Shown: positions 14,030 to 19,405 of the stretch, one piece after another | Layout: every line of letters begins with the position of its first letter | Position numbering within the stretch: position 1 is the first letter of the stretch | Origin: an uncultured Hymenobacter sp. | GTDB lineage: Bacteria; Bacteroidota; Bacteroidia; Cytophagales; Hymenobacteraceae | DNA: 64,000 nucleotides | Direction: 5' to 3' | Assembly: GCF_964243305.1 (NCBI RefSeq) | Contig: NZ_CAXTEF010000008.1 | Location: forward strand, 7,269 to 71,268 | Notes under the pieces: generated by a model | The model's database searches: none | The model's input: only the letters and a program-made list of their open reading frames with translations | What the model was told of the DNA's origin: nothing | Position numbers and translations under genes: made by a program

Positions 14030-14126
14030 CGCGGACTTTGTAGTCCGCGAATGCGCGCGGTTAAGCGCACCATTAAGAGTGTGCTGTCAAAGCTGTTTAC
14101 GCGCGGACTCACCGAGTCTACGCTGC
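14026..14126. repeat. GTAG-type REP doublet (REPIN-like)
   Basis: GTAG followed by the hairpin CGCGGACT-TTGT-AGTCCGCG at 14026-14049. A degenerate inverted partner CGCGGACTCACCGAGTCTACGCTGC lies at 14102-14126. Confidence 0.7.
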
Positions 14127-14143
14127 AACCCTATCTTGCCTTC

Positions 14144-14746
14144 ATGCAAGCCGCTATCACCCAGGCCCTGGCCGACCTCAGCTTCACGGCCATCGACTTT
14201 GAAACCGCCAACGAGCGCCGGGCCAGTGCCTGCGCCGTGGGCGTGGTGCTGGTGCGCCGCGGCCGCATCACCGACACGTTCCAGACGCTGCTGCGCCCGC
14301 GCGAGCTGCGCGTGGACTGGCGCAACCAGCAAGTCCACGGCATCAGCGAAGCCGATTTGCACGAGGCGCCTAGCCTGGCCGACGTGTGGCCACAACTGCT
14401 GCCCTACCTGTACGAGCAGCCCGTTGTGGCCCACAATTCGGCCTTCGACGTGAGCGTGCTCGAACACACGCTGCGCGACTTCGACCTGGCCGTGCCGCCC
14501 TTCCACTGCCTGTGCTCGGTGAAGCTGGCCAAGGCGTGCTGGCCGCACCTGGAGCGGCACCGGCTCAACCATTTGGCTCATTTTTTCGGGCTTGAACTCC
14601 AGCACCACGACGCCCTGTCCGACGCCCGCGCCTGCGCCGAAATCACGCTGCGCGCCCTGCGCGCCGGGCAGCAGCTGCCGCTGTGCTACAAGCAGCGCGA
14701 GCTGACGGCCGGCCTGGCCCGGCGGCTGGCGAAAGCGGCTGCCTAG
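14144..14746 (+). CDS. DEDDh 3'-5' exonuclease (DnaQ/Pol III epsilon-like)
   Basis: AIDFETAN, VAHNSAFD and HHDALSDA. ATG at 14144 is preferred because the upstream extension is REP DNA. Confidence 0.92.
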   Translation: MQAAITQALADLSFTAIDFETANERRASACAVGVVLVRRGRITDTFQTLLRPRELRVDWRNQQVHGISEADLHEAPSLADVWPQLLPYLYEQPVVAHNSAFDVSVLEHTLRDFDLAVPPFHCLCSVKLAKACWPHLERHRLNHLAHFFGLELQHHDALSDARACAEITLRALRAGQQLPLCYKQRELTAGLARRLAKAAA

Positions 14747-14780: not shown

Positions 14781-14806
14781 TATATGTTGCAGTGTTGTTA
14801 ATTAAC
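14781..14806 (+). promoter_or_regulatory. Candidate promoter and palindromic operator of the TA pair
   Basis: TATATGTTG resembles the Bacteroidota -7 TAnnTTTG element and is followed by a perfect palindrome GTTAATTAAC (14797-14806). Confidence 0.4.
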
Positions 14807-14825
14807 CAGATTGAACACCATTTCT

Positions 14826-15044
14826 ATGGAAGCCACGAAACGTCCCGAACTCCTACCGCGTCCACGTAACAATAGCTACCGCGCCGAAGATATTATAGCT
14901 GAATATGGCACCCTGGCCAAGTTCATGAAAGCAATAGGACCCAAGGCGCCGCTGGAAATCCCCGATTTGGGCTTCACCGAGCAGGAAAATCAGCGCATGG
15001 ATCAACTTTTAGCCGAAGAGCGTGCCGCAGCCAGTTCTTTTTAA
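14826..15044 (+). CDS. Small hypothetical protein, probable antitoxin
   Basis: 72 aa with an acidic C-terminus. It overlaps the start of the downstream PIN gene by 23 nt, which is the type II TA arrangement. Confidence 0.65.
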   Translation: MEATKRPELLPRPRNNSYRAEDIIAEYGTLAKFMKAIGPKAPLEIPDLGFTEQENQRMDQLLAEERAAASSF

Positions 15045-15432
15045 TACCAACGTCGTCATCCAGCATATTTGGCGCAGCCAACCCATGCCGGAAGAGGTTG
15101 TGCTGTCGATGGTCGTCGTGGGCGAGTTGGAAGCTTTCGCGCTGAAAGCCGATTGGGGCTACCAGAAGGTTGATTTCATGCAAAGTCTGTTTGCTTATCA
15201 CCCAATGCTAGAAATCTCGCGCGTTTTCACGCTCCCCTACGCGCGCATCGACGCCTACAGCCAGGGCAAGCTGCGGTCCCTACCCCTGCCCGCCGGCCTT
15301 TCGGCTCGCAACATGAGCAAAAACGACCTTTGGATTGCCGCCACGGCACTTTACTTTGATGTCGAGCTGCACACCGCCGACCACGACTTCGACCATTTGA
15401 CGGCGCTGGGCCTGCGCGTGGTGAAGGGCTAA
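15022..15432 (+). CDS. vapC: PIN-domain (VapC-like) ribonuclease toxin, first catalytic Asp replaced by Asn
   Basis: PIN pattern VLF(N)TNVVI..VVVGELEA..KNDLWIAATAL..LHTADHDF. Confidence 0.85.
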   Translation: MPQPVLFNTNVVIQHIWRSQPMPEEVVLSMVVVGELEAFALKADWGYQKVDFMQSLFAYHPMLEISRVFTLPYARIDAYSQGKLRSLPLPAGLSARNMSKNDLWIAATALYFDVELHTADHDFDHLTALGLRVVKG

Positions 15433-18400
15433 AACAGCACCGCGACCTGCATCCGGCCGGTGTGAACGGTGCGCAGGCCGCTGGCCTTGCGGCCGTCATA
15501 GGCCACATTGATATTGAGGCCGTTGCTCAGGCGCTGCTCCAGGTTCAGGTTCCAGGTGAAGTTGGAGCCGGGGCGCAGGGCGTTCAGGATTTCGATGCCT
15601 GCCACCGTGGCCGGGTCGCCCTGGAAGCCGACGCGGGTGCCGCGCACATTGGCCGTGATGGTGCGCTTATTTACTTGGCTGAGGCGGGTTTCGAGGCCTA
15701 GCTCATCGAAAGTGCCCTGGGCCAACTGTTCATTGGGCTGGGTCAGATTAGGCAGGCTGTTGCGCTTGCTTTGGCGCAGGTAGGTGCCGGTCAGGCGCAG
15801 GGCGGGGGTAGGCTGGTAGCTGATTTCGGGCTGCACATCATACAAGAGCAGACGGAAGTTGCGCTGGCTGAGGTAGGTGCTGGCGGCCTCGCGCACGTTG
15901 CGCGCCACGAGCAGCCGGCCCGTGAACGACTGCGCCAGCGTGCGCCGCACGAGCAGGCTCTGGCTCAGAATATTGCGCAGGTCGAAGCCCTGGGCCAGCA
16001 GGGTTTTGAGCTTGGTTTGCTGCACGGTGAACTCGGCGCCGAAGATGGGATTCGAGCGGTTGTAGTACAGGGTGTTGCGCAGGAGGCGGTTGGCACCCAG
16101 GGTCTGCTCGCCGTTGGTGGGCGAGCCGAAGGGATTAAGGCGGGCGCCGAGACCGGGGTCGGTGGTGCGGCGGTCGAGCGTGACGCTGCTAATGCTGGAG
16201 AAGCGGGCCGCCGCGGCGCGCCAGCCGCCGGCCTCGCGCCAGGGGCGCGGGGCGTTGGCCGTGAGGCGGTAGCTGAGCCGGTTGGTGAAGGCCGTGATGT
16301 AATCTTGGGTCGGCAAAAACACCTTAATAAAGGTGCGGTACTGCGCGTCGGGCGTCTGGGCCTCGAAGAACTCCTCTTTCTGCTGAATGCCATCACTGTT
16401 CAAATCGCCAGCGTAGAAGTGGGTGCCCTGGCCGGCGGGTACGGCCACGAACGAGAAGTCGCGCTTTAATTCCCTACCCGTGCCGATGCTGTAGCTCAGC
16501 TCCGAGCGCACCTGGCCTTGCAGCAGGCCGGCGTTGTAGTCGATTTTGCCGAGCACCGTCCGGCGGCGGGCGCTGTCGGCGCTGGCCGCCCGCAAGTCGC
16601 GGTAGGTGGCCAGCACCCGCAAATCCTGGGTTTTACCGATTCTCGTGGCCAGACTGCCCTGCCAGGTTTGGGCCTGGGCGCGGCGCGCGATGGCAGTGCG
16701 CTCCTCATTCGGGGCCTGGTCCTGGCGGCGGCTGTAGTCGAGGCGATAATTCAGCCGGGCCGAGTCGCGGCTCATCACGAACACGTTGTGCTCGTCGAAG
16801 TAGTTGGCCGAGGTCAGCTCGCGGCCGTCGGGCAGGGCGACGCGGTTTTTGTCGAAGCGGTAGGCGTAGCCCGGCACCACGGCCCCGCGCACGAAGCGCG
16901 CCGTGGCTTCGCCCCGCGCCCAGGCGCTGCGGCGGCTGCCCGCGTCGGCGCCGAGCACAAACAAGGAGCCGCGCAGCTCCACGTCGCCCAGCTTCTGAGC
17001 CACATCCAGCCAGTGCTGCAAGCCGCGCACCTCGCCGGCCCGGTAGCGGCGGCTGACGCGGTAGCTGATAGCGTTGTTCGGGTCGCGCAGCAGGCCCAGG
17101 CTGAAGTTGAAGATGTTGTCCTCGCGCGGCGTCTGGCCGGTGCTGGTGCCAGCCACGGTGTTCTGGGCGCTCCAGTTGCGGTCAAACTCTACGTCGCGGT
17201 AGCGGTCGATGGGCGTGAAACCGGCGGCGGTATACTCGTAGTCGAGCGTCGAATACAGGCGGTAGTCGCGCAGATAATTCTCTAGAATCGGCAGGCCCGC
17301 CAGGCTCCGGCCCCGCACCGCGTAGCCCAGGCGCATGGCCGCGCCCTGGTCGGCAGCGGGCGAAAAGCGGTTGCGCTCCAGCCGCGAGCGGGCCAAATCC
17401 ACGAACACCGTGGCCGTGCTGTCCAGCTCGTAAGAGGCGCCCGCCGTCACTTGCTGCTTGCGCAGGGGGGTAGGGAGCAGGCGCACCGGCGCGTAGCGGC
17501 CCTGCCCGGCGCCGGCATACTCAAACACCCGGCCGTTGGCGTTCAGCTCCGTCGAACTCAGCCGATAATCACCTTGGCCCTGAGTTACTTCCGTGAAGCG
17601 CACCTGATACACGCCGCCGAGCGTATCGGCGCCCACGGCGCGGCGGAAGCGGCCCGTGGCGGGGTCGCGGCGGTACAGCACCTGGGTGCGGTCGTAGGCC
17701 ACGGAGTCGGCGCCGGGCGTCAGGGCTACGGCCACGTTGCCGGCCTGGCGCAGGCGCTCGCGGTCTTCGGGGTTAAGATTTAAGTTGGGAGCGTTGTCGG
17801 GATTGTCGGCTTCTTGGTAGAAATTGCCGTGCAGGCGCAGCTTGCCCACTTGCTGGTAGTGGCTCAGCGCCACGAGCGAGCGGGCGTAGTTGAGGTCGGA
17901 ATACTCAAACTCGACCCGCAAACGGGAGTTGCGGGTGATGAGGTGGCGGGGCGAAAACGTGACTTCGGCCAGGTTGTAGTCAATTACATAATCGTAATCA
18001 AAGCCCCGGACTTGCAGGCGCCCATCCAGGTACACGCGCTCCGAGTTGGCCAGCACAATGATGAACTGCTCGCCGTTAGGCCCGCGCAGGCGGTAAGGGC
18101 CCTGCACGTTCTCGATGGGCGCGATGTCGAGCGAGGCAAACTTGCCCTTGGCCACGCCGCCCGCCACAGTCGTGGACGAGCGGATTTCGCGGCCCCGCCC
18201 GTCGCGGCCGGCAGTAGTTACGGCCGCGCTCTGCCCGTCGCTCAAACCCGCATTCTGCCCGTTGCCGACACCGTTGCTCGCGCCGTTATTTAATCCATTG
18301 ATTAACCCTGGATTCGGAATCCCTACCCCCCCGCCCGGCGCCGAGCCGCCCAGCGCCGGCCCACTGCCGGGTACGCTACCCGGCCCGTTGCTGCTGCCGA

Positions 18401-19301
18401 TGTTGCCCGGATTGCCGACCACGGCACCCGCGGCGGGCGCCGTGAACGCACCATTCCCTACCCCCCCCAGCAGGCCTAAACCCGGCGGACCTAGATTAGC
18501 CTCGATGGCCGCGCCCTGAATGTTTTTATAATAGCGCAGAAAGTAGTCGGGCTTGTTGCGCAGCACTACGTCGCCGGCCGTCAGGCTCCACTGCGGCGCG
18601 GTGAGGGTGATGTAGATGCGGTCAAACTGCTGGAGCTGCTGCGTGTTGCCCTCGGGCTGGAAGGGCACGTTCTGGTCGGAAATGGCGGCCGTGAGCTGAA
18701 TATTATCCGTGAGCTGGCCTTCCAGTTGCAGGTTCAGGGCCGAGTTGACGAACACGTTCTGCGTATTGCCGAAGGAGATGCCGCGCGCCAGGTTGCCGGT
18801 TTTGCTGATGCCGGGCGTGCTCAGAATCTGCTCTTGCTGGCTGAAATCCTCGAAGCCCAGGCGGCGGTCCCGAAACTCCAGCGAGTCCATGAGCTGGCGC
18901 GGGCGCCGGAAGCGCGGCGCCGCCAGCTGCAGCGGCAGCACCCGGTAGCAGAGCCGCACCGAATCGGGGATGGCGAAGCCGGCGCTGTCGCGCGGCGCGG
19001 GCCGGATAATCTGGTAGCGGCCGGGGCCGGGGTCGTAGCTCACGGCGCGGCCCTCGGCGCTGACGGAGCCCGGCACGATGGTGAGCGTATCACTGAGGCT
19101 GAACGTGGTCGTGTCGCGGCCCGGCGCCAGGCGCAGGAAGCGGCAGCGCAGGGTACTAGGCGGAGCCGCCACCGCTGGCCGGCCGGAGGTGGCGGGCCGC
19201 TGCTGCGCCCGCGCCGGCCGGGCTCCAAAAGCCAGCAGCAGTCCCAGCAGCAGCCACCCCAGCAGCTTCGGCGACACAGAAACGGGGCAGCGACGGCTCA
19301 T
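15429..19301 (-). CDS. Large predicted outer-membrane beta-barrel protein of unknown function
   Basis: ~1290 aa with a signal peptide, many alternating beta-strand patterns and a C-terminal Phe (QVAVLF). Start is uncertain (19301 ATG or 19277 GTG). Confidence 0.8.
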   Translation of the reverse strand: MSRRCPVSVSPKLLGWLLLGLLLAFGARPARAQQRPATSGRPAVAAPPSTLRCRFLRLAPGRDTTTFSLSDTLTIVPGSVSAEGRAVSYDPGPGRYQIIRPAPRDSAGFAIPDSVRLCYRVLPLQLAAPRFRRPRQLMDSLEFRDRRLGFEDFSQQEQILSTPGISKTGNLARGISFGNTQNVFVNSALNLQLEGQLTDNIQLTAAISDQNVPFQPEGNTQQLQQFDRIYITLTAPQWSLTAGDVVLRNKPDYFLRYYKNIQGAAIEANLGPPGLGLLGGVGNGAFTAPAAGAVVGNPGNIGSSNGPGSVPGSGPALGGSAPGGGVGIPNPGLINGLNNGASNGVGNGQNAGLSDGQSAAVTTAGRDGRGREIRSSTTVAGGVAKGKFASLDIAPIENVQGPYRLRGPNGEQFIIVLANSERVYLDGRLQVRGFDYDYVIDYNLAEVTFSPRHLITRNSRLRVEFEYSDLNYARSLVALSHYQQVGKLRLHGNFYQEADNPDNAPNLNLNPEDRERLRQAGNVAVALTPGADSVAYDRTQVLYRRDPATGRFRRAVGADTLGGVYQVRFTEVTQGQGDYRLSSTELNANGRVFEYAGAGQGRYAPVRLLPTPLRKQQVTAGASYELDSTATVFVDLARSRLERNRFSPAADQGAAMRLGYAVRGRSLAGLPILENYLRDYRLYSTLDYEYTAAGFTPIDRYRDVEFDRNWSAQNTVAGTSTGQTPREDNIFNFSLGLLRDPNNAISYRVSRRYRAGEVRGLQHWLDVAQKLGDVELRGSLFVLGADAGSRRSAWARGEATARFVRGAVVPGYAYRFDKNRVALPDGRELTSANYFDEHNVFVMSRDSARLNYRLDYSRRQDQAPNEERTAIARRAQAQTWQGSLATRIGKTQDLRVLATYRDLRAASADSARRRTVLGKIDYNAGLLQGQVRSELSYSIGTGRELKRDFSFVAVPAGQGTHFYAGDLNSDGIQQKEEFFEAQTPDAQYRTFIKVFLPTQDYITAFTNRLSYRLTANAPRPWREAGGWRAAAARFSSISSVTLDRRTTDPGLGARLNPFGSPTNGEQTLGANRLLRNTLYYNRSNPIFGAEFTVQQTKLKTLLAQGFDLRNILSQSLLVRRTLAQSFTGRLLVARNVREAASTYLSQRNFRLLLYDVQPEISYQPTPALRLTGTYLRQSKRNSLPNLTQPNEQLAQGTFDELGLETRLSQVNKRTITANVRGTRVGFQGDPATVAGIEILNALRPGSNFTWNLNLEQRLSNGLNINVAYDGRKASGLRTVHTGRMQVAVLF

Positions 19302-19405
19302 GCGGCAAAGGTCGGCATTCTCGGGGCGGGGCAGAACGCCGGGCGGCGCTAGATTCGTGCCAGCGCCCTCAGCGCCGCTTTCGCTCAGCCTCACTCGCCT
19401 ACTCC

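Follow-up and report, generated by a model that had tools for sequence, protein, structure and literature searches.

The window analysed here, a stretch of 64,000 nt of DNA from an uncultured Hymenobacter sp., carries what is probably a chromosomal type II toxin–antitoxin (TA) pair whose toxin has been knocked out by a point mutation, with the locus at an early stage of decay. In this family, the antitoxin stop codon, TGA, is embedded in the Phe/Leu-Asp codon pair (..T GAY) that encodes the first metal-binding aspartate of the toxin. One G-to-A change at position 15043 has turned GAT (Asp8) into AAT (Asn8) and TGA into TAA at once. The toxin has lost a catalytic carboxylate and, presumably, its RNase activity and toxicity, with the antitoxin protein left identical.

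Locus organization

The antitoxin gene (14826–15044, plus strand) encodes a protein of 72 amino acids, from an ATG at 14826, with an alternative TTG at 14811, to a TAA stop codon at 15042–15044. The toxin gene (15022–15432, plus strand) encodes 136 amino acids, begins with GTG and has its stop codon at 15430–15432. According to the analysis of open reading frames, the two genes overlap by 23 nt. Within this overlap, base 15043 is common to both genes, being the middle base of the antitoxin stop codon and the first base of toxin codon 8 (15043–15045, plus strand). This codon, AAT, puts Asn8 in the place of the first catalytic Asp (GAT/GAC), and the N-terminus of the toxin reads V/M-P-Q-P-V-L-F-N-T-N-V-V.

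The pair is flanked upstream by the gene of an RNase_T-family exonuclease (14051–14746, PF00929) and downstream by a convergent gene encoding a large outer-membrane protein of 1321 amino acids (15429–19394, minus strand). The toxin stop region (15429–15432) overlaps the end of this convergent gene by 4 nt, which leaves no space for a terminator between them. The same order of genes, namely GH20 hexosaminidase, RNase_T exonuclease, antitoxin, toxin and convergent outer-membrane gene, recurs in L001, L002, L041, L045 and G113, in the last of which the pair has been replaced in part. To judge from gene order, the TA pair is vertically inherited and occupies a fixed chromosomal site.

Identity of the toxin and state of its active site

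The 136-amino-acid protein is a VapC-type toxin with a PIN domain. Against the Pfam profile PF01850 it scores 26.4 bits (cut-off 23.6, E 1.1e-5), the match spanning residues 18–126 only and leaving strand 1 outside. The score against the NCBIfam VapC equivalog NF047959 is 18.6 bits, below the cut-off of 80, with only residues 99–127 matching. A large protein collection contains 475 homologues, several of which are labelled VapC or PIN by the source. The AlphaFold2 model of the toxin, based on 47 sequences, has a pLDDT of 94.8 and a pTM of 0.87, and in Foldseek it gave 38 PDB matches at E ≤ 1e-3, nearly all of them VapC, FitB or PIN chains. The TM scores of these matches are about 0.65–0.74, the E-values of the VapC structures lie between 1e-6 and 1e-4, and VapC, FitB and archaeal PIN structures rank first; the S. 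flexneri VapC mutants D7N (5ED0) and D7A (5ECW) are also found among them. The PF01850 match, the confident PIN model and the 23-nt overlap together bear out the preliminary description of the locus as a PIN/VapC toxin with an overlapping antitoxin gene upstream.

The toxin-family profile puts the residue 8 column (xFDTN) on D6 of NTHi VapC1 (6NKL) and on D26 of Mtb VapC5 (3DBO), and residue 8 therefore corresponds to the first catalytic acidic position. Of the four acidic positions expected in the active site, the first is Asn8 in the window toxin and the others are kept. The second, Glu35 of the GELE motif, is encoded at 15124–15126, the third, Asp102 of NDLW, at 15325–15327, and the fourth position or positions, Asp120-His-Asp122 of TADHDF, at 15379–15387 (all plus strand). 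Their intactness had been noted before, and all of E35, D102, D120 and D122 are indeed present. On its sequence, the toxin is a family member by descent with a broken active site.

The public gene calls of the source genome (P0001) and of relatives (P0010–P0014, P0045) begin at Met22, an internal ATG at 15085–15087 (plus strand), and give products of 115 amino acids. That these calls reflect a loss of the N-terminus in close relatives was considered and rejected, as the DNA ahead of these calls in the relatives encodes an intact M-x-x-P-I-I-F-D-T-N; read against that DNA, the 115-amino-acid calls are a gene-caller artefact. A start called at Met22 hides the catalytic N-terminal strand, and the Asn8 mutation with it, in protein databases. 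A product that really began at Met22 (15085) would be without strand 1 and hence also inactive, and so the conclusion on inactivation is the same either way.

The shared base in relatives

In the 118-sequence alignment, the residue 8 column holds Asp in all of the 117 other full-length homologues. The same is true of the 56 sequences that can be aligned at this column among 150 distant representatives (≤50% identity; 56/56). The first Asp is thus invariant in 173 of 173 aligned relatives and the Asn8 allele is a singleton, a pattern beyond chance, which confirms the earlier observation that, through base 15043, the toxin has Asn where its family has a catalytic Asp; the coordinates also agree.

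The comparison was extended to DNA at 26 other family loci, comprising syntenic orthologues, genus-wide copies and the paralogue in the same genome. Each of the 26 reads T-GA-Y, with the antitoxin TGA stop overlapping the GAY codon of Asp, and the window is the sole TAA/AAT locus. In all 26 loci GA follows a T, whether this comes from Phe TTT, Leu CTT or Cys TGT. The genus is GC-rich, and such constancy fits selection for the antitoxin stop codon. The nearest relatives, L040 and L045, carry GAT. With GAY in all relatives and GAT in the nearest two, the A at 15043 is a derived G-to-A transition. It had been proposed that a G at this base would yield GAT together with TGA, and that a single transition had been silent for the antitoxin. 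The 26 loci agree with the first point, and so does the second with the derived state of the A against every relative, since the change from TGA to TAA leaves the antitoxin unchanged.

An exact-pattern scan of genome and metagenome contig collections returned no second copy of the Asn8 allele, nor of a G variant with identical flanks. Base 15043 was taken from one draft assembly of 79 contigs. We infer that the inactivation is recent; because the protein collection has no relative above 82% amino-acid identity, the mutation itself cannot be dated.

The overlap limits what can happen at the shared G. Of its three possible changes, only G-to-A preserves the antitoxin stop codon; a change to C gives Ser and a change to T gives Leu in the antitoxin frame, with read-through of about 45 codons. 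G-to-A is a GC-to-AT transition, and among spontaneous mutations this class is commonly the most frequent. As the observed change is also the mutationally likeliest one, selection need not be invoked to explain why it is silent for the antitoxin. The coupling of the stop codon with the catalytic codon is a consequence of the overlap and not evidence of selection.

Further changes in the toxin

The substitution at residue 8 is accompanied by others. Toxin codon 17 (15070–15072, plus strand) is TGG and gives Trp at a position that is Arg in each of the 117 homologues. The codon of the relatives is CGG or CGA, and R17W would most simply be another transition, from C to T. Codon 99 (15316–15318, plus strand) is AGC, encoding Ser within the RNMGKNDLW motif, three residues ahead of the catalytic D102, where 113 of the 117 homologues have Gly. 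In total, the window toxin has 5 private changes at sites where 7 syntenic orthologues all share one residue, compared with 1–4 in apparently intact orthologues. Among the window-specific substitutions, A24E, located before strand 2, brings in the only new acidic residue. The presence of R17W and G99S on top of Asn8 points to relaxed constraint on the toxin. These two further hits at conserved positions also weaken the idea, put forward in the preliminary description, that one reversion could re-arm the toxin, as N8D alone might not restore it.

Pairwise dN/dS (NG86) is about 0.12 for the window toxin and 0.065–0.11 for the orthologues, at values of dS (0.8 to over 2) that are saturated, so that the ratio does not inform on the terminal branch: a recently inactivated toxin and a dead one still under purifying selection would look alike in it. 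The toxin reading frame is full length and free of frameshifts and internal stops. Together with the perfectly conserved antitoxin, such a frame is also compatible with a retained function.

The antitoxin family and the upstream region

The gene upstream of the toxin is small, co-oriented with it and overlapping, and the two are conserved together as a pair. Members of the same family lie directly upstream of the toxin at 21 distinct genus or orthologue loci, as well as at the paralogous locus on contig C4 of the same genome. From its position, size and co-inheritance with the toxin, the 72-amino-acid protein is assigned as the antitoxin, and it would be expected to neutralise the toxin. An alignment of the window antitoxin with 25 relatives gives the family motif SYR(A/P)EDI..(Y/W)G..(F)(L/M)....P(L).IPDLGFTxEENxRMDxLLxEER, and in an alignment of 25 sequences the window antitoxin keeps all of the invariant and near-invariant residues.

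Sequence searches gave no match for the antitoxin in Pfam, NCBIfam or the PDB. Three members of the family had zero Pfam matches at E ≤ 10, and the profile search against the PDB returned nothing better than E 0.79. None of the DNA-binding domains of the VapB classes AbrB/SpoVT, RHH/MetJ-Arc, Phd/YefM and HTH is recognisable in it. The AlphaFold2 monomer model, which is of low confidence (pLDDT 73, pTM 0.35), consists of a pair of short helices, followed by an extended linker and then a long C-terminal helix. On these comparisons, the family looks like a VapB-type class not described before, with members in Hymenobacter and other Cytophagales.

Upstream of the pair there is a single palindrome, the perfect 10-bp GTTAATTAAC at 14797–14806, which lies in an AT-rich spacer 20 nt ahead of the antitoxin ATG. 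A role as operator is conceivable; the palindrome is absent upstream of the orthologues, where no conserved operator was found. A plus-strand scan for sigma-70-type promoters, which does not cover the promoters of Bacteroidota, returned nothing.

Decay of the locus in other lineages and the paralogous pair

Several orthologous loci are damaged, each in a different manner. In G113, the antitoxin and toxin codons 1 to about 28 have been replaced by a palindromic, MITE-like repeat of about 150 bp, and a toxin remnant of 107 amino acids is left. The repeat (1357–1509 of L005, G113:C1) contains nested inverted repeats of 22, 31 and 24 nt and is present in G113 in roughly 35–40 near-full-length copies with 85–99% identity. 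In the genome of the window it is represented only by core matches of about 30 nt and by one match of 115 nt at 76% on C73. The toxin P0009 of L045/L046 (ENA metagenome contigs, 1501–1911) has a +1 insertion compensated by a −1 deletion 22 nt away, which scrambles residues 94–100, including the invariant M98 and K100; it also has several changes at invariant sites, and P88L, P90L and W104S are found in it too. The 7 contigs with this allele still yield a gene call for an intact protein of 136 amino acids.

At L047–L050 (Logan contigs), the toxin has been deleted directly after the Asp codon. This leaves an orphan antitoxin of 69–71 amino acids, 77% identical to that of the window, which now ends in ...AALD/G-TAA. 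The gene neighbourhood differs here, with a Band_7 gene upstream of the orphan. Truncated or split copies are also present in G008, G019 and G075 of the same genus. As read from these alleles, the orthologous locus has been broken independently several times.

The genome of the window also holds a paralogous TA pair that is apparently intact (L025, G000:C4:46123–46524, minus strand). Its toxin, which has a GTG start, is 62% identical to that of the window and has the Asp (VVCDTN), and its antitoxin TGA overlaps the Asp codon. At the DNA level the two loci are about 76% identical over 190 nt. The C-terminal segments of the two antitoxins are closely alike (PLEIPDLGFTEEENRLMDEILREER in the window and PLEIPDLGFTEQENQRMDQLLAEER on C4), and it is possible that the retained antitoxin has a cross-protective or anti-addiction role against the C4 paralogue.

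Discussion

The functional consequence of the substitution at residue 8 can be estimated from VapCs that have been characterised. The VapC D7A mutant of S. flexneri is a standard inactive control (PMC8923223), and the D6A mutant of NTHi VapC1 does not inhibit growth, though it is also poorly expressed (PMC4229260). The claim that the first Asp is needed for activity thus stands, as mutants of the equivalent residue are non-toxic. By extension from the Asp-to-Ala mutants and from mutants of other acidic residues in these proteins, the Asn8 product would be a folded protein that still binds the antitoxin and is dead as an RNase. It is likely, by this analogy, that the Asn8 toxin is inactive. Constraint on it would have been relaxed, as R17W and G99S suggest, at a time when the antitoxin is still fully conserved.

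The preliminary description had considered a detoxified or regulatory TA pair. Such a reading is not needed. The orthologous loci decayed independently and in cruder ways, which makes plain decay the simpler reading, and neither a conserved operator nor a DNA-binding domain of the antitoxin was found. Asn8 most likely reflects the ordinary decay of a chromosomal toxin gene.

The best placed of the alternatives, although an unlikely one, is that selection retains the dead toxin, either because it co-represses the operon together with the antitoxin, binds RNA as a pseudo-nuclease or acts as a decoy, the pair then serving in anti-addiction or cross-neutralisation against the C4 pair or incoming mobile copies. 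A precedent for a dead VapC with residual functions is the D99N mutant of NTHi VapC1, which is non-toxic and keeps its binding to VapB and to the promoter (PMC4229260). Against retention, no DNA-binding domain is recognisable in the antitoxin and no conserved operator was found. The full-length toxin frame and the complete set of conserved antitoxin residues would be expected of a retained pair, but R17W and G99S fall at conserved sites of the toxin, and none of the 173 aligned relatives shares the allele. The dN/dS of about 0.12 also seems to favour retention; with dS saturated, it describes mostly the history before the mutation. The intact C4 paralogue, with its very similar antitoxin C-terminal segment, speaks for retention, and the outright loss of orthologous loci in other lineages speaks against it.

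A more specific form of retention would make the TGA within the Asp codon a one-base 'safe disarm' site. According to this proposal, a folded, antitoxin-binding but dead VapC would be kept by selection as a co-repressor or decoy, or would, together with the antitoxin, shield the cell from the intact paralogue or from incoming copies. We regard it as distinctly unlikely.

It is improbable that the Asn8 toxin is still active, perhaps as an attenuated RNase, with E35, D102, D120 and D122 sufficing to hold the metal and the pair working. Every other acidic residue is intact and the antitoxin is maintained, and VapC active sites have some plasticity: the fourth acidic position is a natural Asn in certain VapCs, which make up for it with a Glu, as NTHi VapC1 does with E120 (PMC4229260). 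The window toxin, on the other hand, has no compensating new acidic residue among its own substitutions, A24E apart. The first Asp, moreover, is invariant in 173/173 relatives, its Ala mutants are non-toxic in two VapCs, and R17W is a second hit.

An error of sequencing or assembly, by which the true base at 15043 would be G and the toxin a normal Asp8 VapC, is the least probable of the readings: the allele comes from one draft assembly and occurs in no second sequence, but substitution errors in consensus assemblies are rare, a single error would leave unexplained both R17W, located 27 nt downstream at another invariant residue, and G99S, and the C4 paralogue (about 76% over 190 nt) is too divergent to have produced a chimeric consensus.

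Decay of the toxin gene thus remains the preferred explanation, and it involves no new mechanism. It is established that toxins become inactivated at chromosomal TA loci, and likewise what a mutation of the first Asp causes; deletions, nonsense mutations and inactive toxin mutants are all recognised routes by which such loci decay (PMC7167474). If the base is real, the window offers a natural case of the first step of this process, a catalytic knockout in which both frames are still open. Annotation pipelines would still score the pair as a working VapBC. The locus illustrates how overlapping frames restrict which inactivating mutations spare the partner gene, and it draws attention to a VapC subfamily of the Bacteroidota with an antitoxin outside the described classes.

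In its general organisation, the pair resembles the type II VapBC systems, such as those of S. flexneri/pMYSH6000 VapC, NTHi VapC1 and M. tuberculosis VapC5, in which a small upstream antitoxin gene overlaps a PIN toxin gene of about 135 codons. The PIN fold is common to them, as are the acidic motifs xxDTN, GELE, NDLW and TxD, present in the toxin family. The window pair differs from these systems in the Asn that replaces the first catalytic Asp, in an antitoxin that matches no known VapB class by sequence, and in the weak similarity of its toxin to the NCBIfam VapC equivalog. In the substitution of the first acidic residue, at the end of strand 1, the toxin is comparable to the engineered VapC mutants D7N and D7A (5ED0, 5ECW) and to D6A of NTHi VapC1. 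In contrast to D7N, D7A, D6A and D99N, which are laboratory mutants, the Asn8 of the window is natural and is accompanied by R17W and G99S. The closest parallel in terms of fate is ccdO157 of E. coli (Mine et al. 2009, as cited in PMC7167474), even though that system encodes CcdB, a gyrase poison, rather than a PIN RNase, belongs to a host of another phylum than Hymenobacter (Bacteroidota), and differs from the window, where the inactivating base is common to the antitoxin stop codon. Like the window pair, ccdO157 occupies a conserved chromosomal site at which toxin-inactivating point mutations, frameshifts, deletions and orphan antitoxins are found according to lineage, and the antitoxin tends to persist longer than the toxin.
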